The notes beneath the pieces are model-generated. The model was given only the letters and a program-made list of their open reading frames with translations, was not told where the DNA came from and made no database searches. The position numbers and the translations under genes were made by a program. Shown piece by piece: positions 21,672 to 30,779 of a DNA stretch of 64,000 nucleotides. This stretch comes from Bacillota bacterium. GTDB lineage: Bacteria > Sysuimicrobiota > Sysuimicrobiia > Sysuimicrobiales > Segetimicrobiaceae. Position 1 is the first letter of the stretch; every line of letters starts with the position of its first letter. The stretch covers positions 13,924-77,923 of the forward strand of contig JAJPIA010000101.1 of the NCBI GenBank assembly GCA_021324975.1, given 5' to 3'.

Positions 21672-21824
21672 TGGCGAATCCTTACGACGCCGGCCGGCGC
21701 ACGCGGGCACTACATGTTCAATACAGCAGCGCAGCCGGCAGGGGCGAACTCTACCGGCTGCGCTTATTCGCTTGGTCGCGCGGTTCGTTGCGGATTGTCG
21801 TCAACATCCAGCCGTGCGATCTGC

Positions 21825-22013
21825 TTACTGTCCGCTGCCGTCGCCCTGCGCATTACCCCGGAAATAGTCCGGCGTCGAGCCTGCGCCACCGGCGGTTGCA
21901 CCGATGCTGACGACGCTATTGTCGGCCAACGCCGCGCCGGGCACCAGAGCCACAACCCCCACCAACACTAACCCAGCCAGTGCACCGGCGACGACCTTCC
22001 ACAACCGCTCCAT
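21825..22013 (-). CDS. small secreted/membrane-anchored Gly-rich peptide (62 aa), hypothetical
   Basis: MERLWKVVAGALAGLVLVGVVALVPGAALADNSVVSIGATAGGAGSTPDYFRGNAQGDGSGQ. A strong GGAGGTG RBS lies 7 nt upstream of the ATG at 22013. It is directly downstream of the DCC gene on the same strand. Confidence 0.45.
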   Translation of the reverse strand: MERLWKVVAGALAGLVLVGVVALVPGAALADNSVVSIGATAGGAGSTPDYFRGNAQGDGSGQ

Positions 22014-22236
22014 CGTGATCACCTCCCCTGAATTTTTGGTGCACGTACATCGTACTCGGCCACGGCCACCCCCACCTTGATCCTCGTCACACTCCCGCGT
22101 GATCTTGCTCACACAGATGACCAACGGGCGTCGAACCCGACGCAGGGGATCCTGCGCGGGCTCTTCGTCGCGATATTGTTCGTGACCGTCGCGACCGAGG
22201 ATATGCGCAGACTCGCGCCGCGGCCTGCGGAAGGGA

Positions 22237-22626
22237 TTACGTCAGAAAGCGGTGCTCTAGCTCCGGGGCAGGCACGCGACACGTCGCCGACTTCCCGAAC
22301 CATGCATAGCGATGACGTGCCACCCATCGATATACGGCATCTCGAATAGGCCGCGGAATGATGCGAAGGAACCCAATGAGCCGCCACGGCGGCGGGAGGC
22401 GCGCGCACACCTCAAGGATGGCCGCCGAATCAGTATAGACGCGACGACCCGCGACGACGACAATGCCCGCGAGGACGGGCGCGGGCAGGTGCAACTCCTC
22501 GAGTATCGCGCGCCCCCGCGCAGACTGCTGCGCGCCAAAGACAAACACCCCGAACCGATCGTGATCGATGACGAAGTTCACCCACGCATTGCAGAGGTTG
22601 CACACGCCGTCGAACAACACCACCAT
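22237..22626 (-). CDS. DCC-family thiol-disulfide oxidoreductase (DUF393)
   Basis: MVVLFDGVCNLCNAWVNFVIDHDRFGVFVF...QS..G..IL is the DUF393/DCC1 CxxC N-terminus. The start is ambiguous (ATGs at 22626, 22695 or 22731); I chose 22626, which has a GAGGG RBS. Confidence 0.8.
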   Translation of the reverse strand: MVVLFDGVCNLCNAWVNFVIDHDRFGVFVFGAQQSARGRAILEELHLPAPVLAGIVVVAGRRVYTDSAAILEVCARLPPPWRLIGFLRIIPRPIRDAVYRWVARHRYAWFGKSATCRVPAPELEHRFLT

Positions 22627-22696
22627 CGCACCCTCAGGAGGCGCTTGGATGCGGCCGGCTCGTCCGACCGAGCCCGGCGACTTCGCGTGACTCATG

Positions 22697-23509
22697 TTAA
22701 TGGACAAGCACCCCGCCGAATTTCTGCGCAAAATAATATACCGCTGGATACGTGGCCGTAAACGACCAGAAGAAGATGTTCAGCCCCATGCATAATCCAA
22801 TCGTGAAGTGAAACGCCGCCCCGGCTGCGAAAAACCCCAGCGCGACGCGCGGGTCGATCCAACAGACGACCGGGCCACAGCATTCATAACACAAGACACC
22901 CCAGCAGGCAGCGCGGGCCGCCCAACGGTGCCGCGAGAAAAATCTCGCCAGTGATGGCGCGCCATATGCGTGCGTATTCAAGATGCCGGCGATGGCCTTG
23001 CCGCTGCGCCACACCGGGGAGATCGCCTTCGCGACGCCCGAGGTGAGATAGGCGACGACGAGCTGGCCGGCCACGAACCCGAACACGATCGTCAGCATGC
23101 GGCTGGTCGGGTGCAGATAGTACACGAAGAGAGCGGCCAGCACAAGCAGCATCATCTGATCCGAGCCGTCCGTGCCGTACTGGTTTCGGAACAAGAACAA
23201 CATGTGCACGATCAGCATGATGCCGACAGCCACCACCATCCACGCGGAGGCAAGCCCGGAGAGCACCAGGAGCGCCGCCAACAGTTGCAGGCAGACCAGC
23301 ACAAGGATTCCCGGGCAGGACAGCAACACGTTCAGCAACGCGGCCCCGACGCCGCGTGCCGTCCACCGAGCATTGGTCGAGAGAACGCGCCAATCGTACA
23401 ATCCGGCCGGCGAGAACAAACGGCGGGCCACGAGGGTTTCCGCCGCCTGGATCGCGACGCCGATGGAGATGAGAACCTGCGTGGTGCGGAGCAGCGCCGC
23501 CGAGTCCAT
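22697..23509 (-). CDS. HTTM domain membrane protein (vitamin K-dependent gamma-carboxylase-like)
   Basis: Several TM segments and the conserved HTTM block FRNQYGTDGSDQMMLLVLAALF. ATG at 23509 (MDSAALL...); the track start at 23632 overlaps the upstream gene. Confidence 0.8.
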   Translation of the reverse strand: MDSAALLRTTQVLISIGVAIQAAETLVARRLFSPAGLYDWRVLSTNARWTARGVGAALLNVLLSCPGILVLVCLQLLAALLVLSGLASAWMVVAVGIMLIVHMLFLFRNQYGTDGSDQMMLLVLAALFVYYLHPTSRMLTIVFGFVAGQLVVAYLTSGVAKAISPVWRSGKAIAGILNTHAYGAPSLARFFSRHRWAARAACWGVLCYECCGPVVCWIDPRVALGFFAAGAAFHFTIGLCMGLNIFFWSFTATYPAVYYFAQKFGGVLVH

Positions 23510-23514
23510 TGTGT

Positions 23515-24039
23515 TCAGATGCGGTGGAAGCGGGACAGGAATACTACGTCGCACGCCCGCGCGGACCCGCGTCCGTAGGAACGGGCCACGGCAAACTGCG
23601 TGTACACGGCGGATGACGCATGCGGCTGGCACGTGACGAAATTCAGCAGGGCGAGGAATCCGGTGTCGATCAACATGAAGTCCGGATCCTCACGGTGGTA
23701 CGGAGCGGAGTGCCGTAGCTCGTTGCCGAGATCCGAAAGCCCTTTTTGGAAGCGCTTACGCGGGTTCCACAGCGATCGGAGCGGTCCCGGGTGAAACGGC
23801 ACCTCTCGCCAGCGCATGACGTCTCCACACGCCAGTTTGTCGCGGTACAGAAGATGGGTATCGGTCGTCGCGGGGTTCGGGGCAAAGAACGTCCACGCCG
23901 GTATCATCGCGAAGTCGTCGTACCGCTTGAGAGCCAGGACCCAGCCCTTCAAGCGGAACTGGTAGGCTATCGTTACGAGGAGCCAGACCGCGAACAAAAC
24001 GGCGGCAACTGCTTCGGTCCCGTCCGGGCGACCAAGCAC
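23515..24039 (-). CDS. hypothetical membrane-associated protein, upstream partner of the HTTM/DCC pair
   Basis: 174 aa with an N-terminal TM helix (AVAAVLFAVWLLVTIAYQF), no motif I recognise, and a stop 6 nt before the HTTM start. Codon usage is coherent with its lower-GC neighbours. Confidence 0.5.
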   Translation of the reverse strand: MLGRPDGTEAVAAVLFAVWLLVTIAYQFRLKGWVLALKRYDDFAMIPAWTFFAPNPATTDTHLLYRDKLACGDVMRWREVPFHPGPLRSLWNPRKRFQKGLSDLGNELRHSAPYHREDPDFMLIDTGFLALLNFVTCQPHASSAVYTQFAVARSYGRGSARACDVVFLSRFHRI

Positions 24040-24048
24040 GATCGCCCC

Positions 24049-24468
24049 TCACGACGACTGCGAGACCGAAGCCGCGCGGGCTTCGAGAAGCTCCTGCACC
24101 GACGCGTTCGGGTCAACGGGTTGAGTCCGGGGCCGCAGGCCGCGCTCGCCCGGAGTACAGGCCCGGACTTCGTTTCGACCTTGCGCGTACCGCGCAGCGT
24201 GTGCTTCGGCAATTTTGGCGTGTGCTTCGGCGCGGGCGGCGTGCTCGTGCGCCCGCTGGGCCATTCGTCTCGCTGCCACAGCGAGTTGCCGAGCTTCTTC
24301 GGCTTCTTCGGCCTCTTCGGCTTCCTGGGCGGCCTGACGGCGGTCTTGAGCGAGGACGTCCCCGACGGTCAGATACTCTTTCTCGGGCGGGAGCACCCCG
24401 GCAATGTCTCGCTCGGCGTTGGTCTCTCCCGTTGCACCGGGTGCGTTTGTTCCAGAAGGACTCGCCAT
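24049..24468 (-). CDS. hypothetical coiled-coil / low-complexity protein
   Basis: The ATG at 24468 (MASPSGTNAPG...) gives about 140 aa rich in Ala/Glu/Gln with an (EEA)n repeat. It may be spurious. Confidence 0.3.
   Translation of the reverse strand: MASPSGTNAPGATGETNAERDIAGVLPPEKEYLTVGDVLAQDRRQAAQEAEEAEEAEEARQLAVAARRMAQRAHEHAARAEAHAKIAEAHAARYAQGRNEVRACTPGERGLRPRTQPVDPNASVQELLEARAASVSQSS
24294..24325. repeat. short tandem hexanucleotide repeat (cttcggc-type), encoding EEAEEAEEAEEA on the minus strand
   Basis: Seen directly: cttcttcggcttcttcggcctcttcggcttcc. Confidence 0.6.
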
Positions 24469-24808
24469 GGCCGACCACCCCCAAGATTCTTGGATTCCGC
24501 TTGAACGCGCCGAGTAAGTACAGGGCCAGGAGAGTGCCGGAGGATAGGACGAAGAATCTATGGAATCACTGCGACGCATACGCCGGAATTCCGCGCTATC
24601 TGCGGCCGCAATCACGTAAATTGGGCCGTTAGTTCGACGTGAACATGGAATTCCTTCTGCGCCAACTCTCGACCATTTGCATCCGCTCTCGAGTGAGCGC
24701 GCGCACATTCCGGGCTCACACGTAGGTAACCACACCACTCATCCTCCAGAAATCGGATCAGCCTCATGCTAGGGCGCACGAACGGCTCGCGAACAGGCGC
24801 GTTGGGGG

Positions 24809-27221
24809 GTGAAGAGAATGGCGGCCGCGTGGTCGAGCAAATCCACGACTCCTGCTTGCCTGCAGACCGGTTTCGGCCGTTTCGGTGAAGCCCTTCCGTT
24901 GGACGGCCAGATCAGCTGCGGAGCCACGGCTATCACCATGTCGGTGCTGTGGCTCATCAAGAATCGCTTCACACAGCTTCGACCATCACCCCGGTCGGCC
25001 CACGTAGCCGAGGACCTGGTCCGTGTGTTCGACGGTCTCGCGTATGCGAACGTGGGAGGGCAGATTATCGCCGAAGACTGGTATCGATACGCCGTCGAGA
25101 CGTACCTTGCGTTGAAAGGAATAGGACGAGGCCGATTGGAGATCTGTCGCCGGGTCCCCGCACTCGAGTGGTTCGCGAAGATGAATCAAAATCAGACAGT
25201 CGTCAATTTCGCGGTCGGGTGGTATGGCTCTCCCAAGGATTCGGACACCTTCCAACGCCATGGTCAACACTGGCTCACGCTGCTCGACCAGGATCCCGAT
25301 AGCGGTGTCCTCACGGTCAACAACCCGATGCCGCGGACATTTCCCGGCACGGCCGCCCAAAACCCCCAACACCTCAGAGCGACGCCATTCGAGGGTAGGA
25401 CCAACCCGGCGCTTCCCCGCGAGGACTTCCTTCAAATTGCGACGGTTCGCGCGCACTCGCACGGCCGGCGAGCCGGCATTCTTGAGACGGGGTATGCGTG
25501 GACGATCCACGAGAGCGCGTTACCGTCAGCGGCCGGTTACACTCCTGACGCCTGCGAACTCGAAACGCTGCGCTACATCAACGGCGAGTTCGCCGACTTG
25601 GAGGTGATCGCCCCGCTGGAAGGACGCGGCGGCATCCTCAAATGGGGGCGAGGGAAGCTCATCCTGGCGAATACGAACACGACGACCGGAACCAATGAAA
25701 TTTACGAAGGACCGCTCGTAAGCATACACGCGTCCGAGACGCCCTTCGGCACCGGCACGATCAAGCTGTTCGGCGGCGGAGGCTTGGTGCTCAGCCCCAG
25801 GAACGGAGCCGGGGCGGGCGTGACGTCGCGTGTGGCCGGAGCGCCGCAGGGTGGCGTGGCATTTGGGGGCGGCAACAGCGTAGAGTTCGACCGCAATGGG
25901 CATGCGTCGCTCACGGTCACGTTGGGTGGATGGACGGACGGCAACACGGCGAATCTCACGCGATCGCACAGGGGGACGCTACGCGTCATCCCGGGCTCTG
26001 GGGTAGAGTCGCTTGGTCACGACGAGCGGTTGCTCGTCGCCGGCGAAGGTCGCAATCTGCCGCCCGTCACAAACGGCATGGTGGCGCCGTATGTCGTCGC
26101 GCAGGATCGGGATGGCTCGGGTGCGTTCCTACGCTACACCAAGAGGGATGGGTTCGTCTCTGCGACGATGTCGTCGTCTTCGACGATGCCGATCGACGAC
26201 TCAACCGACGACACCATCTACCATGTAGAAAGCGACCAGACCATCGCCGCCGGCAGAGAAGCGAAGGCGTACGCGATGTGCCTTGATCCTCACCGCGTTG
26301 TCCGTGTGGCGGGCGATGCCGCGCTCCGGATCGGCAACGACAGGCGGTCTCCCGTGGCCGGGGTCATTCTCAACGGCGGGACGATTGCCGGCGGGACCTT
26401 GTCATTTGAGGATCGCGAGGGCCTGATTTATAGCGGTCAGCGTGGTCCGGCCGCTGCGAGGATCACGAGCGACATCTCGGGCTGCCGGGGGATCACGTTC
26501 TTCGGGCCCGGCGAGATCAGGCTGGACGGGGCGAACTGGTATCGCGGCGGCACCGAGATCCATTCAGGCTGGGTCGTCGTGGAGAACACAACCGGCACGG
26601 GGCTGGGGAGTGACGACGTCCTGGTCCGGACCGGCGGAACCCTGGTCATTCACGCCGGGGCCCGTGTCGCGGGCAAGGTGAGCCTTGAACGGGGCTCACA
26701 CCTCATCCTCAAAGGCGGCGCAATCGGGGGGTCTCGACATTAAGTATTCTGGCCACTCGGACAAGGGCGGCATCCTGAAGGGCTTCGGCAATGTTGTCGG
26801 GGCCTCGGAAGTGTCGGGAACGATCCGCGCCGGACGGACGATCGGGACCCTCACGTTCGAAGACCGGGTCTTGTTCGCCACGACCTCATTTTACTGGACA
26901 CTGGTCAGGCTCGACGACGCCGACGCGCACGCGGGTGTGTACTGGAATGCCCTCAGGTTTCGTGGCCCGGCGAAGCTCGGCGCCGAGGGAGACGGCTTTT
27001 TCGTGCTGCTGCATTTTCAGGACGTTCCCGATCCCGACAGCAGCCATCCGTTCTGGCGCCGAGAGCACCGGTGGCTGCTGGCTCAATTCGACGCCAGCCC
27101 GTACGAGTGGTTGGTGAATTCTCCCCGCGGGAATTTCGTGTTCGCGCACGGAACGTTTCGCGTCGAACCTGAGGGTGACCACCGAGCCTATCTCGTGTAC
27201 AAGCCGGCGCCTGCACACTAG
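24809..27221 (+). pseudogene. large protein with N-terminal C39-like papain-fold cysteine-peptidase domain and C-terminal autotransporter-associated beta-strand (PATR-like) repeats; reading frame broken at a G6 tract
   Basis: The N-terminus has QISCGATAITMSVLWL (Cys) and HGQHWLTLLD (His), as in C39-like peptidases. The C-terminal half carries Gly/Thr-rich beta-repeats (GTIKLFGGGGLVL, GGTLSFEDREGLIYSG, TGGTLVIHAGARVAGKVSL). The ORF ends at 26743, but a -1 change in GGGGGG (26726-26731) joins it in-frame to ORF 26685..27221 (...GGAIGG|LDIKYSGHSDKGGILKG...). Confidence 0.6.
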
Positions 27222-29893
27222 AGAGCCCGCACAGCCTGGCCGCCCGACCAGTCGGCCTCGGCGAGCGCGTACCTCACGGCCTGTTCGAGCGTCATCGCGC
27301 GCCCCTCGGCAATCCGTGCGGTCGCCGCGTCATCGCCAAGCGCTGAGCGCAGTCCCCGGAGGACGTCGCCGACGTTCGCGTTGACCCTGCTGACCGGCAG
27401 GCGCAGACCGAACGCCTTGAGTCCCGCCTCCGCGGCGCCGAGAAGGCGCGCGGCACGCTCGGCCTGTCCCCGCGCGGCCTCAAGCAAACCGATATCTTCG
27501 AGGCCGGCAATCATCCCCATCCTGTGTTTGACCTCCCGCCAGATTGCGAGCGCGTCCCTGTGCAGCTGCCAGGCGGTGTCGTAAGCGCCCTCACGAAGGG
27601 CCACCACGCCGAGGTTACCGGTAACGTATCCGACGAGCCATTTGTTGCCGGTTTCGCGGCATAGCATCAGGCTCTCCGTGTAAAATGTGCGCGCCGCGGC
27701 CAGGCGCCCCTCGGCGGCCGCCAGATAACCGAGGCTGTTCAGCACTCGGGCCAGATCGTTCTTATCGTCCGCCGCCGCAAACAGACGCCGCGCCTCATTG
27801 AGGAACGCGGCCGCCCGCCCAAAATCGCGCCGCCAAAATGCCAGTCTGCCAAGCCCGTGCAGGGCGTCGGCCGCACCAAGACCGTCCTCGAGCGATCGGG
27901 CGATGGCCAACGCCTGCTCCAACGCCGCCTGCGCTGCGGCAGCATCCGCGAGGACGGTGGCCGAGTAACCGATGTACCGGAGCGCGCGGGCTTTGAGAAG
28001 CGGTGGCGATTCCCCCGTCCGGAGGGCGATCGCGAGCCGCTCTCGCGCCTCGCGATGATGGCCGCGCACGTACCAGAACCACCACAACGCACAGGCCAGC
28101 CGGAGGCCCGGTTCGGCCTCTGCGGACGCGGCGCACCAGTGCAGCGCGCCCCGAAAGTTATCATGCTCGGCTTCAAGCCGGTCCAACCACGCTACCTGCG
28201 CCGGCCCGCGAATTTCCGGCTCCGCCTGCTCCGCCAGCGCCAAGTACCAGTCTCGGTGGCGTCGCAGAACGTCCACGGCCTCCTGAGACTGCTGCAGCTT
28301 ATCGTGGCCGTATTGGCGTATACTCTCGAGGAGCCGGTACCAGCCGCATCCCTCACGTTCGTCGAACAGCACGAGCGACTTGTCCACGAGGCGCGTCAGC
28401 AGTTCGAGAACGTCGTCTTCTTCCAGACCGCCTCCGCCGCAGATCTGCTCGGTCGCTTCCAGCGTGAAATCTCCGGCGAACACGGAAAGCCGCCGAAACA
28501 GGATGCGCTCACGTTCCGATAAGAGGTCATGGCTCCAATTCAGCATTGCCCGCAGTGTTTGGTGTCGTGGGAGCCCCGTCCGGCTGCTGCTTGTGAGCAG
28601 TCGAAAGCGATCGTCCAACCTCGTCGCGATCGAGTCGACCGACAGGACCTTGACCTGCGCCGCCGCCAGCTCGATCGCGAGAGGAATCCCGTCCAGACGG
28701 CAGGCCACCTGCGCGACCGCGGGCGCACTGCTGCTCGTCAAGCGAAATCCCGGCCGGCTCAGCGCCGCCCGCTCGACGAACAGGCGCACGGCTTCATACC
28801 CCAGCAACTCCTCGACCGGCGGTAGGGCCTGGAGATTGGGAGCCGACAGCGACGGAACACGCCAGACGACCTCGCCCGACACGCCCAACGGTTCGCGGCT
28901 CGTCGCGACAATCCGCAGCCCGGCGCAGGCGCCCAGCAGGACCGCGGCCAGTTGCGCGGCCCCGGCGAGCAGATGCTCGCAATTGTCGAGGATGAGGAGC
29001 AGCGACTTGGGATGCAGCGCGTCAACCAGCGTATCGGTCAACGAGCGGCGCGGTTGCTCGGGTATGCTGAGCGCCGACGCGACCTCCTTCGCGATCAAAT
29101 TTGCGTCCGACAATGCGGCCAGCTCGATCAGCCACGCGCCGTCAGGGTAGCGGCTCACGAGTTCGGAGGCAACTCGGAGTGCGAGTCTCGTCTTGCCGAC
29201 CCCCGCGCTGCCCGTCAACGTGACCATGGCCGTCTCCGATAACGACCGCTTGAGCTCCGCGACCTCCCGCTCACGTCCAATGAAGCTCGTCAGCTGGCGA
29301 GGGAGGTTGTTGAGGAGGGCGTCCAGCGACCGGAGAGGTGGAAACACAGGCATCAAGTCCGAGCCCGTCACCTGAAACAGTCGTTCAGCGCGGGCCAGGT
29401 CTCTGAGCCGGTGAGCGCCGAGGTCGCGCACGCCCAGCCCTCGGGGCAGATCCGTCTCCACGAGCGCGTGAGTCGCCGCCGACAGCAGAATCTGTCCTCC
29501 ATGGGCGGCATCGCAGATCCGGGCAGCCCGGTGCACGTCCATGCCCTCATACCCGGTCTCGGTCATCACGGGCTCTCCCGTGTGCAGCCCCATCCGCACT
29601 CTGACGATCGCCTGCTCCGGCCAGGTATGAGCCGAGAGTGCCCGCTGGGCCGCCACGGCGGCCGCCACCGCGTCGCGCGCGCGTGAGAATGCGACGAAGA
29701 ATGCGTCTCCCTCGGTACTGATCTCACGTCCGTGCCACTCTTTGAACGCGGCCCGCAGCAACCGATGGTGGTCGGTCACGACGCTGACGTAGCGATCGCC
29801 AAGATCCTCGAGTAATCGCGTGGACCCCTCGATGTCGGTGAAGAGAAGGGTAACGGTTCCAGCCGGCACACGAGTCATCGGCGGCCTCCCCAC
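27218..29893 (-). CDS. class III adenylate/guanylate cyclase domain fused to STAND/AAA+ NTPase and TPR repeats
   Basis: N-terminal cyclase homology domain (VTLLFTDIEGSTRL...GDAFFVAFS...RMGLHTGE), a Walker A motif (GSAGVGKTRLAL), and a long C-terminal TPR/helical repeat region; 891 aa. No C-terminal LuxR HTH is detected. Confidence 0.85.
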   Translation of the reverse strand: MGRPPMTRVPAGTVTLLFTDIEGSTRLLEDLGDRYVSVVTDHHRLLRAAFKEWHGREISTEGDAFFVAFSRARDAVAAAVAAQRALSAHTWPEQAIVRVRMGLHTGEPVMTETGYEGMDVHRAARICDAAHGGQILLSAATHALVETDLPRGLGVRDLGAHRLRDLARAERLFQVTGSDLMPVFPPLRSLDALLNNLPRQLTSFIGREREVAELKRSLSETAMVTLTGSAGVGKTRLALRVASELVSRYPDGAWLIELAALSDANLIAKEVASALSIPEQPRRSLTDTLVDALHPKSLLLILDNCEHLLAGAAQLAAVLLGACAGLRIVATSREPLGVSGEVVWRVPSLSAPNLQALPPVEELLGYEAVRLFVERAALSRPGFRLTSSSAPAVAQVACRLDGIPLAIELAAAQVKVLSVDSIATRLDDRFRLLTSSSRTGLPRHQTLRAMLNWSHDLLSERERILFRRLSVFAGDFTLEATEQICGGGGLEEDDVLELLTRLVDKSLVLFDEREGCGWYRLLESIRQYGHDKLQQSQEAVDVLRRHRDWYLALAEQAEPEIRGPAQVAWLDRLEAEHDNFRGALHWCAASAEAEPGLRLACALWWFWYVRGHHREARERLAIALRTGESPPLLKARALRYIGYSATVLADAAAAQAALEQALAIARSLEDGLGAADALHGLGRLAFWRRDFGRAAAFLNEARRLFAAADDKNDLARVLNSLGYLAAAEGRLAAARTFYTESLMLCRETGNKWLVGYVTGNLGVVALREGAYDTAWQLHRDALAIWREVKHRMGMIAGLEDIGLLEAARGQAERAARLLGAAEAGLKAFGLRLPVSRVNANVGDVLRGLRSALGDDAATARIAEGRAMTLEQAVRYALAEADWSGGQAVRAL

Positions 29894-29957
29894 CGCTCAC
29901 GACGCACGGCCGCGCCAATCCAAGACTGTCCCGTCGTGAGTCGATCCTATTGGGTAG

Positions 29958-30653
29958 TCACTCGTTCACCGACCGCGGTAGACGCCGGCGCAATTCGCCC
30001 GGCTTGAGCACGGCCACGACGCCGCGGCGGCATTGCACCAACCCTTCGTCGGCCAGCAGTCGAAGCCACCTGTTGACGCTCTCACGCGTTCCCCCCACCA
30101 CTTCCGCGAGCTCCTCCTGAGTCAGCTGGGGTGGGCCCAAGGTGCCGTCCGGCCCGCGCCGCTCGCCTGCCTCGGCCAGCGTCAGGAGCACCTTGGTCAA
30201 GCGCGTGGGACCGTCCAAGAACACCGCGTCGTGCAGGAGGTCCGTCGTCCGCCGCAGGCGGCGACTCAAGGCAGCGAGGAGGGCCGCGGCGGTATCCGGA
30301 TGGCGCCGTAAAAATGTGAGAAAGTGCTCGCGCTCCAGCGCAAAGAACTTTGATGGCGCCCGTGCGGTCGCCGTGGCCGATCGCTCGCCACCGTCGAGGA
30401 GGGCGAGTTCGCCGAAGAACCCACCCGGGCCGAGTAGTGCCAGGATGATCTCCCGGCCCTCGGGAGACATAATGGTCAGCTTGACTTCGCCGGAGTGAAT
30501 CAAGTACAGAGTTGCTCCGGGGTCTCCTTCCGAGAAGACGACGGCGCCCTTCCGGTAGGTGCGAGGCCGAAACAGCTGGGCGAGGGCGTCGGATTCCGCC
30601 GTCGATAGTCCGGCAAAGAGTGGGGTCTGCGCGAGAATGCGCTCGACGGACAT
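29958..30653 (-). CDS. Crp/Fnr family transcriptional regulator (cNMP-binding + HTH)
   Basis: cNMP-binding beta-barrel motif (GEVKLTIMSPEGREIILALLGPGGFFGELAL) and a C-terminal HTH (TQEELAEVVGGTRESVNRWL). Confidence 0.9.
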   Translation of the reverse strand: MSVERILAQTPLFAGLSTAESDALAQLFRPRTYRKGAVVFSEGDPGATLYLIHSGEVKLTIMSPEGREIILALLGPGGFFGELALLDGGERSATATARAPSKFFALEREHFLTFLRRHPDTAAALLAALSRRLRRTTDLLHDAVFLDGPTRLTKVLLTLAEAGERRGPDGTLGPPQLTQEELAEVVGGTRESVNRWLRLLADEGLVQCRRGVVAVLKPGELRRRLPRSVNE

Positions 30654-30779
30654 ATCCCCCTCTAGCCCGCATGGCTTATCGCCAATTATACACTAGGCCT
30701 GGGAACTAGGCCTGGGACATCGGCGCCGCCGGTCTGTATCGGTATCGCGTCGGGGCCAACATGCGCGGGCCGCGGATGC

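Follow-up and report, generated by a model that had tools for sequence, protein, structure and literature searches.

A cyclase-STAND-TPR protein shares a low-GC island with a Crp-type receptor and a tandem CRP-box promoter

A 9-kb island within the window (the whole 64,000-nucleotide stretch of DNA analysed, from a bacterium of the Sysuimicrobiota) encodes a protein in which a class III nucleotide cyclase homology domain is fused to a STAND nucleotide-binding domain and a TPR array. A CRP-type receptor for cyclic nucleotides (Crp) is encoded beside it, and a promoter with two CRP boxes lies ahead of a small secreted-peptide gene in the same island (crp 29958-30653, cyclase 27218-29878, boxes 22076-22113). 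The cyclase, Crp and the two-box target promoter are proposed to form a local circuit, with a probability of about 0.55, and this circuit is a further case of already known kinds of system. An earlier note, made from the sequence alone, left the choice between a second-messenger signalling module and a defence-type sensor. The former is favoured because crp and the cyclase gene are probably co-transcribed, Crp has the pocket and recognition helix of such receptors, the two genes cluster in two other lineages and the tandem-box promoter is conserved; the latter found no support. The features are listed in Table 1.

Table 1. Positions of the features in the window
Feature	Position	Strand	Details
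62-aa secreted-peptide gene	21825..22013	-	source contig gene call; RBS GGGGAGG
-10-like TACGAT box	22049..22054	-	21 nt past the proximal CRP box; TAnGAT/TACCAT column in promoter alignment
Tandem CRP boxes	22076..22113	-	TGTGAGCAAGATCACG (22113-22098) and TGTGACGAGGATCAAG (22091-22076)
Probable operon	22237..24738	-	four genes; source contig gene calls
PATR/autotransporter-repeat protein gene	24809..27221	+	convergent with cyclase gene; weak PATR match
Cyclase-STAND-TPR gene	27218..29893	-	longest ORF 891 aa from GTG 29893; likely start ATG 29878, 886 aa
TPR sensor array	27263..28279	-	residues 539-877, then conserved family C-terminal cap; no HTH
Helical arm and winged-helix domain	28289..28816	-	residues 360-535, including GIPLAIE (GxP); AlphaFold2, Foldseek
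STAND nucleotide-binding domain	28859..29284	-	residues 204-345; Walker A GSAGVGKT, Walker B LLLILDNCEH, TSR sensor motif
Class III cyclase homology domain	29366..29863	-	residues 11-176; alignment to Ma1120 and trypanosome cyclases, Foldseek
crp	29958..30653	-	231-aa CRP-type cNMP receptor/transcription factor; Pfam, alignment to M. tuberculosis CRP
Putative crp promoter	30685..30717	-	TATAAT and 13-nt repeat; read from sequence, function inferred

The product length of 891 aa given in the earlier note is that of the longest open reading frame, but the protein probably begins at the internal ATG, which the source gene caller also takes and which is served by the RBS GGGGAGG; the GTG at 29893 overlaps this RBS. 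The order of cyclase, Walker A NTPase and TPR array read by the note was borne out by the Pfam scan, an AlphaFold2 model and Foldseek. Guanylate_cyc (PF00211) matches residues 11-146 with 46.4 bits (cut-off 21.9), AAA_22 and NB-ARC match residues 204-334 (NB-ARC with 25.6 bits, cut-off 23.5) and TPR_12 matches from residue 635 on, while a precomputed annotation assigns PF25872 (HTH_77) to the helical arm and winged-helix domain. The AlphaFold2 model (mean pLDDT 90.4, pTM 0.72) is divided into a cyclase domain (residues 14-176), a P-loop NOD (208-345), a helical arm with winged helix (360-535) and TPR helices (539-877). The gathering score for PF00211 together with the fold places the first domain among the class III cyclases; on the target structures the Foldseek TM score is 0.92 for the Ma1120 cyclase domain and 0.86-0.94 for those of Ma1120 and Rv1900c. 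The second region has the Walker A, Walker B, sensor Arg and GxP motifs and the winged helix of STAND NTPases of the NB-ARC/AP-ATPase type. The motifs GSAGVGKT, LLLILDNCEH, TSR and GIPLAIE are invariant in relatives, as are residues G228, G231, G233, K234, T235, D303, E306 and T331 among 110 of them.

The top Foldseek match of the protein is the solved STAND-TPR protein 6mfv (E 3e-14), and the Apaf-1, CED-4 and plant NLR NB-ARC modules are matched as well. The layout of NOD, helical arm, winged helix and TPR sensor is common to 6mfv, MalT and the window protein. MalT is described as working by an inducer-driven ADP/ATP switch and multimerisation (PMC4381067); its effector is a DNA-binding domain whereas that of the window protein is a cyclase. 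The same NOD-TPR module occurs in PknK-type kinases and in AfsR/BTAD and LuxR-family regulators. Over residues 190-794 the protein shows 38-41% identity to the products of actinobacterial plasmid genes that carry the annotation protein kinase/PknK, BTAD regulator or LuxR regulator, and the NCBIfam AfsR model matches residues 196-829. The N-terminal output of these proteins is a kinase or DNA-binding domain, in contrast to the cyclase of the window protein.

There is nothing unusual about the window protein within its family of cytoplasmic sensor cyclases, which is very large. Its first 340 residues (cyclase and NOD) match 17,041 cluster representatives (clustered at 50% identity) from many phyla at E<=1e-30; the family has at least 8000 matches, with more than 120 clusters at 47-58% full-length identity. 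At least 586 family loci are found in species-representative genomes of many phyla, including Chloroflexota, Armatimonadota, Actinomycetota, Proteobacteria, Myxococcota and Gemmatimonadota. Paralogues abound in the family, and 20 of 80 cyclase loci hold tandem paralogous copies.

The Mycobacterium tuberculosis cyclase-ATPase-LuxR proteins Rv0386, Rv1358 and Rv2488c belong to the same family and share the fusion of a cyclase domain to a STAND-type ATPase, but they carry a C-terminal GerE/LuxR helix-turn-helix (HTH), whereas the window protein ends at its TPR cap. Over residues 4-606 the window protein is 41% identical to the product of a Mycobacterium plasmid gene that bears the annotation LuxR family regulator. 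A canonical C-terminal LuxR/GerE HTH, which according to the earlier note would, together with a conserved housekeeping context in relatives, place the protein with the Rv0386-type regulators, was looked for and is absent. Thus, the reading of a protein without a LuxR-type tail held: Pfam has no GerE match to it at E<=0.1, and both the AlphaFold2 model and the alignment of relatives end it at the TPR cap. The C-terminus coincides with that of 104 of 110 relatives. Three of the 110 (P0070, P0088 and P0113, with roughly 53-54% identity to the window protein) have a LuxR tail, an extra 71-76 aa with a canonical LuxR HTH. The statement that such proteins usually carry an HTH fails for the close relatives, as GerE is found in only 4 of 120. 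Since the LuxR HTH is lacking, any transcriptional output would need a receptor apart from the protein itself, such as the one encoded by the adjacent gene. To our knowledge, the cyclase-STAND-TPR proteins without an HTH, which are the majority, have been assigned neither a ligand nor a product nor a downstream receptor, and we know of no member of this subgroup on which any experiment has been done.

In the alignment the metal-binding residues D20 and D63 and the transition-state residue R125 are kept. The D20 position is Asp in 120 of 121 family sequences, the D63 position is Asp in 115 and Glu in 5, and the R125 position is Arg in 119. The canonical Asn and substrate pair (Lys/Asp for ATP; Glu plus Cys/Ser/Gly for GTP) are not present. 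S59 occupies the substrate-specifying Lys position (mostly Asp in the family), G114 the substrate-specifying Asp position and H121 that of the transition-state Asn. Both activity and product are uncertain because three of the six canonical catalytic positions (S59, G114 and H121) are non-canonical. These replacements, and a Pfam score that is moderate at 46 bits, would suit a domain that is not a cyclase but a nucleotide-binding or dimerisation module, or one that catalyses another reaction, giving the protein an output other than a cyclic nucleotide (cNMP). Such a domain is unlikely, as the two metal-binding Asp residues and the Arg are near-invariant, and His121, kept by 117 of 121 family members, points to an active site under selection. 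The fold resembles that of active cyclases (TM 0.9), and Rv1900c is reportedly an active cyclase with His at the Asn position. Ma1120, the best solved cyclase match, is active with Ala at that position (PMC4215837). Proteins of the Rv0386 type have non-canonical substrate residues in the N-terminal cyclase domain, as does the window protein, and Rv0386 is an active cyclase that adds to the cAMP found in infected macrophages (PMC3466318).

The assignment of the neighbouring gene to the cNMP-binding Crp family was confirmed by Pfam (cNMP_binding 92.7 bits, HTH_Crp_2 47.2 bits). Its best solved relative is M. tuberculosis CRP (Rv3676), which matches over the full length (E 2e-39) with an identity that is moderate only (estimated from the alignment). 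Crp has the phosphate-binding cassette FGE...R[ST]A and the recognition helix of CRP-type receptors. The pocket motif FGEL...RS (FGELALLDGGERSATA) is the same in M. tuberculosis CRP, and the helix TRESVNR (R-E-x-x-x-R) aligns to it with RESVNR in place of RETVNK. With 103 bits, Crp falls short of the 266-bit cut-off of NCBIfam NF008732 and is not the E. coli CRP equivalog, but it is a member of the family nonetheless. Unlike M. tuberculosis CRP, its clade is defined by a link to small secreted-peptide genes.

Crp had been described as lying 64 nt downstream of the cyclase gene. The adjacency on one strand stands, but both genes are on the minus strand, so that crp is 5' (upstream) of the cyclase gene, and the gap measured from the likely ATG is 79 nt. 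No terminator was found in this gap, and the two genes are probably co-transcribed, judging from its length and the lack of a terminator. A perfect TATAAT (30690-30685), the end of which is 31 nt upstream of the crp ATG, may serve as the crp promoter and is directly preceded by two tandem direct copies of the 13-nt repeat TCCCAGGCCTAGT (30717-30692). A PWM scan found no CRP boxes upstream of crp or in the crp-cyclase gap, and the absence of a box ahead of the pair counts against the local circuit.

The island (21672-30779) has a GC content of 0.646 compared with 0.709 and 0.689 in its flanks, in agreement with the low-GC island seen in the earlier note. The cyclase and crp genes share its lower GC3 (0.77-0.79), while nearly all flanking genes have values of 0.81-0.93. 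Neither tRNA genes nor notable flanking direct or inverted repeats nor mobile-element boundaries were found at its borders. The PATR gene is split into ORFs of 644 and 178 aa by a frameshift at the G-run 26726-26731. Its counterpart in L081, the locus of the nearest relative of the cyclase, is a single gene of 808 aa, to which the two ORFs align by tblastn at 49% and 47% identity over contiguous segments. The operon comprises an ORF of 229 aa whose coding signal is weak and the genes for a membrane-anchored protein of 174 aa, a multi-pass membrane protein of 270 aa and a DCC1-like thiol-disulfide oxidoreductase (Pfam E 2e-30). The 174- and 270-aa genes directly follow the cyclase gene in the related locus L083, with 58.6% and 61.5% identity.

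The peptide gene and the tandem boxes lie at the far end of the island from crp. The boxes are of the TGTGA-N6-TCACA type and their centres are 22 bp apart. Seven promoters were aligned, all from the loci of Crp orthologues (the window, L086, L088 twice, L090 twice and L092), and all seven have tandem boxes at a fixed register before a TAnGAT-type box. The proximal box keeps the same register in 7/7, and the distal box is a full GTG-N8-CAC palindrome in 6/7, the L090 158-aa promoter having CAT; the 14-nt core of the window distal box is identical in L086. If transcription starts about 7 nt past TACGAT, the two boxes would be centred near -41.5 and -63.5. The PWM was built from sites that it then scores, with the second L090 pair outside the training set. 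Tandem box pairs were absent from 977 kb of control, unrelated cyclase loci, and the PWM found no boxes upstream of the cyclases in L094 and L095. The generic CRP consensus (TGTGA-N6-TCACA, up to 2 mismatches) has 10 matches over the window compared with 11.4 expected and is thus not enriched. The two best intergenic matches to it became meaningful only through comparison with the Crp-orthologue loci.

The 62-aa peptide has a signal peptide ending ALA|DN and a mature part that ends GNAQGD. It is homologous to peptides encoded beside Crp orthologues (48% identity to L088_64b). Crp orthologues are nearly always found beside a two-CRP-box promoter driving a small secreted-peptide gene. The hydrophobic segments of these peptides end in AxA cleavage sites, as with secretion signals, and their mature sequences vary among the loci. 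From this arrangement, the 62-aa peptide gene is the likely target of the window Crp. The tandem-box promoter in L090 may drive the cyclase gene too.

Crp pairing is not general to the cyclase family. Only 4 of 80 cyclase homologue loci have a cNMP-binding neighbour, which counts against the local circuit and against the dedicated pairing proposed in the earlier note. Crp is missing beside the three nearest relatives of the cyclase (56-58% identity) and beside those of the other Crp-linked cyclases. When tested as a clade, the three Crp-linked cyclases did not form one, and they are not closest to one another. Seen from the receptor, part of the claim stands. Crp orthologues (63-75% identity to the window Crp) were compared in seven distinct contexts, from loci that are few and phylogenetically related, and three of the seven hold a cyclase-STAND-TPR gene within about 3.5 kb, each in a different arrangement. 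Besides the window these are L086/L098 (Crp identity 74%) and L090 (68%), and the combination of cyclase, Crp and tandem-box promoter recurs in L086 and L090. The remaining four contexts have no cyclase within 10 kb. Identical Crp and peptides are found in L086 and L087, of which the former has the cyclase and the latter lacks it. A metagenome scan for Crp relatives yielded only three short contigs, which replicate L086 and L088. The source samples appear to be soil metagenomes.

A less likely reading is that there is no dedicated coupling: the many paralogous sensor cyclases would feed a common cNMP pool or another receptor, Crp would be the resident regulator of the peptide genes in its lineage, answering to any cyclase that happens to be active, and the two would be mere neighbours in a variable island. 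The rarity of cNMP-binding neighbours, the Crp-free nearest relatives, the scatter of the Crp-linked cyclases, the L086/L087 comparison and the tandem copies of a highly paralogous family all suit such independence. Against it, three of seven contexts is well above expectation if one family copy occurs per 100-500 kb (a rough, assumed density), and in the window a terminator-free gap of 79 nt lies between the two genes, which share the lower GC3 of the island.

In the proposed local circuit, the protein would act in the cytoplasm as a class III nucleotide cyclase of the receptor type, with the TPR array as sensor and the NB-ARC-type NTPase as the STAND switch. Class III cyclases are functional only as dimers. 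If the protein behaves like other STAND proteins, a ligand would trigger nucleotide exchange and oligomerisation, and the N-terminal cyclase domains would thereby be united. The product would be a cyclic purine nucleotide, cAMP being more likely than cGMP with the specificity uncertain. Crp would bind this product and activate the two-box promoter at the other end of the island, leading to synthesis of the 62-aa secreted peptide. A closed loop, in which the peptide (or a processed, re-imported form) is the ligand of the TPR array and raises cNMP so that Crp induces more peptide, is compatible with the recurrent clustering of Crp, peptide and cyclase-STAND-TPR genes, the variable mature peptides and the L090 promoter, but it is improbable.

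The cyaD1 locus of Sinorhizobium meliloti likewise combines in one place a class III cyclase, the Crp-like, cNMP-dependent regulator Clr and its target gene smc02178, which has a Crp-type box and no assigned function (PMC4222275). Unlike the window cyclase, which is a cytosolic STAND-TPR protein, CyaD1 is a CHASE2 receptor cyclase of the membrane. One class I box precedes the Clr target, as opposed to the two boxes of the window promoter, one at a class II-like and one at a class I-like distance. The two loci are not orthologous in sequence.

The architecture of the window protein is also that of Avs (AVAST) proteins, in which a STAND NTPase is joined to a C-terminal TPR-like sensor and an N-terminal effector. 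A defence system could be imagined in which the TPR array senses a phage protein as in Avs, the cyclase answers with an alarm nucleotide as in Pycsar and Crp induces small hydrophobic peptides that damage the membrane; the low-GC, strain-variable island and the hydrophobic N-terminus of the target peptides would fit. Such a defence role is very unlikely. PADLOC yields nothing significant for the cyclase: PycC reaches E 0.012 with 13 bits, the best matches are a TPR model of the generic kind (E 6e-5) and noise. None of the eight other island ORFs tested matched a defence model. Avs effectors are nuclease, protease, SIR2 or TIR domains whereas that of the window protein is a signalling enzyme, and no PADLOC Avs model matches it. 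Its sensor is conserved rather than diversified, with consensus-like TPRs and a mean column identity of 51% over 110 relatives. No defence genes recur in 80 cyclase neighbourhoods, where clustering recovered only tandem paralogues, a scattered ABC transporter and spurious Arg/Ser-rich antisense ORFs. The lack of mobile-element boundaries and tRNA genes at the island and the secretion-signal-like AxA sites of the peptides also speak against a role in defence. Pycsar systems, like the window, pair a cyclase with a cNMP-binding-domain protein, and Crp matches the PADLOC PycTIR and TIR-effector models (E 1e-10 to 1e-11). These matches cover the generic cNMP-binding domain only (residues 21-140). 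The Pycsar receptor ends in a toxic TIR/TM effector, whereas Crp ends in a CRP-type, DNA-binding HTH with a conserved promoter target, and the match of the cyclase to PycC is not significant.

On present evidence, the cyclase-STAND-TPR architecture drops off the list of candidate Avs-like defence systems. These proteins are among the most abundant multidomain sensor cyclases of soil bacteria, with thousands of clusters. The window locus together with L086 and L090 provides a compact test bed with one cyclase, one CRP-type receptor and one two-box promoter at textbook distances. If the coupling is true, the promoter would give a signal by which to identify the TPR ligand and the nucleotide product. 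If the peptide loop is true, uncultured soil bacteria would have a quorum-sensing-like circuit that is relayed by a cyclic nucleotide.

The low-GC island of the window may encode a signaling chain in which a cyclase-STAND-TPR protein, a CRP-type regulator (Crp), and a secreted-peptide gene act in sequence. The cyclase would be a cytosolic receptor whose TPR array senses a ligand; by analogy with MalT, Apaf-1, and other STAND proteins, its NB-ARC-type NTPase would switch and oligomerize. Oligomerization would activate the cyclase domains, which to our knowledge act as dimers only. The Crp, probably cotranscribed with the cyclase, would read the cyclic nucleotide and activate the tandem-box promoter of the secreted-peptide gene in the same island. 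From domains, motifs, promoter conservation, and clustering, each of them observed, we infer the links of this chain, which as a whole has a probability of about 0.55. The Sinorhizobium meliloti locus cyaD1-clr-smc02178 is a known precedent for a locus of this kind (PMC4222275). That the secreted peptide is itself the TPR ligand, forming a peptide-sensing loop, is very doubtful.

In Pfam, residues 11 to 146 of the cyclase protein match a class III cyclase domain (46.4 bits against a cut-off of 21.9), residues 202 to 334 match P-loop STAND families (AAA_22, NB-ARC, AAA_16, nSTAND1, and NACHT), and the part from residue 635 on matches TPR_12; GerE/LuxR has no match. The AlphaFold2 model, for which 110 relatives served as input, is confident (mean pLDDT 90.4, pTM 0.72). 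Its top Foldseek match is 6mfv, a solved STAND-TPR protein, followed by the cyclase domains of Ma1120 and Rv1900c (TM of about 0.9 on the target) and then by the NB-ARC modules of Apaf-1, CED-4, and plant NLRs. All three analyses agree with the cyclase, Walker A NTPase, and TPR layout that the earlier note read from the 891-aa product. The NTPase motifs GSAGVGKT, LLLILDNCEH, TSR, and GIPLAIE are intact and invariant among relatives. The reported lack of a LuxR-type tail also holds, as the C-terminal end of the protein is the end point of 104 of the 110 relatives. A LuxR HTH is unmistakable in the extra 71 to 76 residues of 3 of the 110, and with a LuxR tail in 4 of 120 close relatives, an HTH is an exception among these rather than usual, as had been supposed. 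HaaT is a TPR protein of cyclophane RiPP clusters; the match of the C-terminal TPR region of the cyclase to its NCBIfam model (118 bits, E = 4e-34; far short of the cut-off of 1125 bits) probably stems from a common STAND-TPR scaffold and not from any connection with RiPPs. The island genes scanned include no radical SAM gene.

The cyclase-STAND-TPR architecture is very common. A word-indexed search with the cyclase protein matched at least 8000 proteins, and among the matches listed more than 120 clusters, many of them annotated "predicted ATPase/class 3 adenylate cyclase", align with it over its full length at 47 to 58% identity. When a single genome was scanned for each species, at least 586 loci of the family emerged, in Chloroflexota, Armatimonadota, Actinomycetota, Proteobacteria, Myxococcota, Gemmatimonadota, Verrucomicrobiota, and other phyla. 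An exhaustive HMMER search with residues 1 to 340 (cyclase domain and STAND nucleotide-binding domain, NOD) found 17,041 representatives of 50%-identity clusters at E <= 1e-30; nearly all of the best 150 have both domains matched contiguously. On actinobacterial plasmids the NOD-TPR module also stands behind Ser/Thr kinase (PknK-type), BTAD/AfsR, and LuxR domains, and cyclase residues 4 to 606 align at 41% identity with a gene on a Mycobacterium plasmid whose annotation is LuxR family regulator. Tandem paralogs occur in 20 of 80 loci of cyclase homologs (L040 and 19 others among L001-L080), and one neighbor, a variant of 1405 aa, has two cyclase domains ahead of the NTPase. The Mycobacterium tuberculosis Rv0386 group belongs to the same broad family as the window cyclase; Rv0386 is an active cyclase with noncanonical substrate residues and a role in macrophage cAMP (PMC3466318).

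The cyclase domain was aligned with Ma1120 and trypanosome cyclases, and residues were counted over 121 family members. Metal-binding D20 and D63 and transition-state R125 are kept and are near-invariant among the 121. His121 lies at the canonical Asn position, where 117 of the 121 have His; Rv1900c, which reportedly has His there as well, is said to be active. Ma1120 has Ala at this position, yet is active (PMC4215837). Ser59 and Gly114 occupy the substrate-specifying Lys and Asp positions, where the family mostly has Asp and Gly; the sequence alone does not specify the nucleotide product. Conservation of this noncanonical residue set argues for a functional active site rather than a decayed one, and a noncyclase role for the domain is an unlikely alternative to cyclic nucleotide synthesis.

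Crp (231 aa) matches cNMP_binding (92.7 bits) and HTH_Crp_2 (47.2 bits) in Pfam. In its recognition helix, RESVNR, the three residues through which CRP contacts bases are retained, and the alignment with M. tuberculosis CRP spans the entire protein, which fits the boxes of CRP type found at the peptide promoters. The two genes lie on the same strand with crp upstream of the cyclase, not downstream by 64 nt as the earlier note had it. The GTG at 29893 overlaps a GGGGAGG ribosome-binding site belonging to the ATG at 29878, which is also the start in the gene calls of the source contig (JGI soil metagenome), and the product is likely 886 aa with a crp-cyclase gap of 79 nt. That contig carries the exact Crp, and the gene calls were confirmed there. 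Upstream of crp, a 13-nt tandem direct repeat directly precedes a perfect TATAAT, a sequence seldom encountered at a GC content of about 70%; there is no CRP box in this stretch, and the repeat may serve as the operator of a different regulator.

Viewed from the cyclase side, pairing with Crp is not conserved. A cNMP-binding ORF is present in the flanks of only 4 of the 80 cyclase loci, directly upstream in one, and the closest cyclase relatives, L081 (58%), L083 (57%), and L082 (56%), all lack Crp. What lies upstream of the cyclase in L081 and L083 instead is the gene for a conserved 64-aa protein and one resembling F420H2-dependent quinone reductases. The 64-aa protein (MAWYRCSCG...) is encoded immediately upstream of the cyclase, with 73% identity between these two loci, and has no counterpart in the window; in L083 a single CRP-like palindrome lies about 80 nt upstream of its gene.

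Viewed from the Crp side, the pairing recurs. Crp orthologs (63 to 75% identity) were examined in their contigs, where their genes are usually divergent from one or two adjoining small genes (59 to 80 aa). These encode proteins with a signal peptide whose terminal AxA precedes acidic residues. Their homolog in the window is the 62-aa peptide gene, located at the end of the island away from crp. The promoter before the small genes is conserved: a CRP-type palindrome, Y-GTGA-N6-ATCAC, 6 to 7 bases, a second box, GTGAY-N5-RTCAAC, 21 bases, and a -10-like TAnGAT/TACCAT box. If transcription starts about 7 nt past the -10-like box, as predicted for the window near 22042, the centers of the two CRP boxes would lie at -41.5 and -63.5, distances that are classical for class II and class I CRP sites. 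With a PWM from these sites, an additional tandem pair, outside its training set, was found in L090 before a 158-aa secreted repeat protein; no tandem pair turned up in unrelated cyclase loci totaling 977 kb. The 158-aa protein consists of five DKDRGDVFAYDTVPGIGTPVLQ repeats and has a DRGDMTSY motif in common with an 80-aa peptide adjoining the L092 Crp; GNAQGD ends both the window peptide and peptide L088_64b. A short acidic Gly-Asp motif may be common to these peptides.

Three of seven distinct Crp-ortholog contexts have a cyclase-STAND-TPR gene in the same cluster. The three arrangements differ (see table), and these cyclases are not each other's closest relatives. Contigs L086 and L087, from different samples, agree in an identical Crp and in the peptide genes, at 99.9% DNA identity. 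Their sequences part about 280 nt before the point where the cyclase starts, and what follows is the cyclase in L086 but a gene for a short-chain dehydrogenase in L087, which is either strain-level cyclase gain or loss or an assembly chimera. The linkage is thus recurrent but labile, and the few, related loci allow no sound P-value for it. The main rival explanation, that the adjacency of crp and cyclase has no dedicated meaning, is possible but less probable than the signaling chain.

Coordinates of features in the window and in related contigs
Feature	Position	Strand	Remark
Low-GC island	21672-30779		
Hairpin	21728-21764		14-bp arms, 9-nt loop
Peptide gene	21825-22013		62 aa
Distal CRP box TGTGAGCAAGATCACG	22113-22098		14-nt core identical to L086, surroundings diverged
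Membrane protein genes (174 aa, 270 aa; in the window with the DCC1-like gene)	22237-24039; L083 4039-5377	- (window)	
9-nt unit GCTTCTTCG	24293-24328		About four tandem copies
PATR/autotransporter-repeat gene	24809-27221	+	
Run of six G	26726-26731		Frameshift in PATR gene
Cyclase gene	27218-29893	-	ORF of 891 aa
HaaT match	27239-28042		Residues 618-885
Cyclase domain	Residues 14-176		AlphaFold2 model
NOD	Residues 208-345		AlphaFold2 model
Helical arm and winged helix	Residues 360-535		AlphaFold2 model
TPR helices	Residues 539-877		AlphaFold2 model
crp gene	29958-30653	-	
TATAAT and repeat TCCCAGGCCTAGT x2	30685-30717	-	Upstream of crp
64-aa protein gene	L081 716-910; L083 568-762		
CRP-like palindrome TGTGAGCCGGTTCACA	L083 473-488		
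Second tandem-box promoter and 158-aa secreted protein gene	L090 3687-4264		
80-aa peptide gene	L092 5682-5924		
Tandem paralogs	L040 2-4216		
Divergence point	L086 8991; L087 1156		
Window arrangement			crp, then cyclase, codirectional
L086/L098 arrangement			Crp divergent from two peptide genes, then cyclase
L090 arrangement			Crp divergent from small gene, SLH protein, cyclase, small gene, then second tandem-box promoter

The low-GC island is real (GC of 0.646 against about 0.70 in the flanks), as the earlier note had observed, and its reduced third-position GC is common to the cyclase and crp genes. The PATR gene converges on the cyclase gene, and a frameshift at its run of six G divides it into ORFs of 644 and 178 aa; in L081, the nearest relative, it is a single gene of 808 aa. 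The split is present in both source contigs (L084 from JGI and L085 from Logan), assemblies that may share one sample, and may reflect genuine pseudogenization or a tract subject to phase variation. In L083, genes for a 174-aa and a 270-aa membrane protein directly follow the cyclase, and the window has both (59% and 62% identity, respectively), followed by a DCC1-like thiol-disulfide oxidoreductase. The first is membrane anchored and the second, which by eye looks HTTM-like, is multipass; neither has a Pfam family. The downstream genes common to the window and L081/L083 thus make the island partly conserved synteny with the cyclase rather than a foreign neighbor. Between the PATR and 174-aa genes, a 9-nt tandem repeat lies in a weakly coding 229-aa ORF region, and a hairpin about 60 nt past the stop of the peptide gene is a possible terminator.

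The STAND-TPR layout had also suggested a defense-type sensor, a role that now appears highly improbable. PADLOC gave nothing significant for the cyclase (the best matches are to a generic TPR model and, with an E value of 0.012, to PycC), the matches of Crp to PycTIR-type models are confined to the cNMP-binding domain and its C terminus is an HTH, and none of eight other island ORFs tested matches a defense model. When all ORFs within 6 kb of the gene were clustered for the 80 homolog loci, no defense genes emerged and the tandem paralogs were the sole recurrent neighbor. Moreover, the sensor region is well conserved, and no tRNA genes or boundary repeats marking a mobile element were found at the island.

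The cyclase protein, the Crp, and the cyclase-Crp-target locus are each of a known type, and the architecture is very abundant. What is modestly new is a defined Crp clade that a tandem-box promoter connects with genes for small secreted peptides, together with the repeated clustering of that clade with HTH-less STAND cyclases. These two findings provide a testable read-out for an uncharacterized family.
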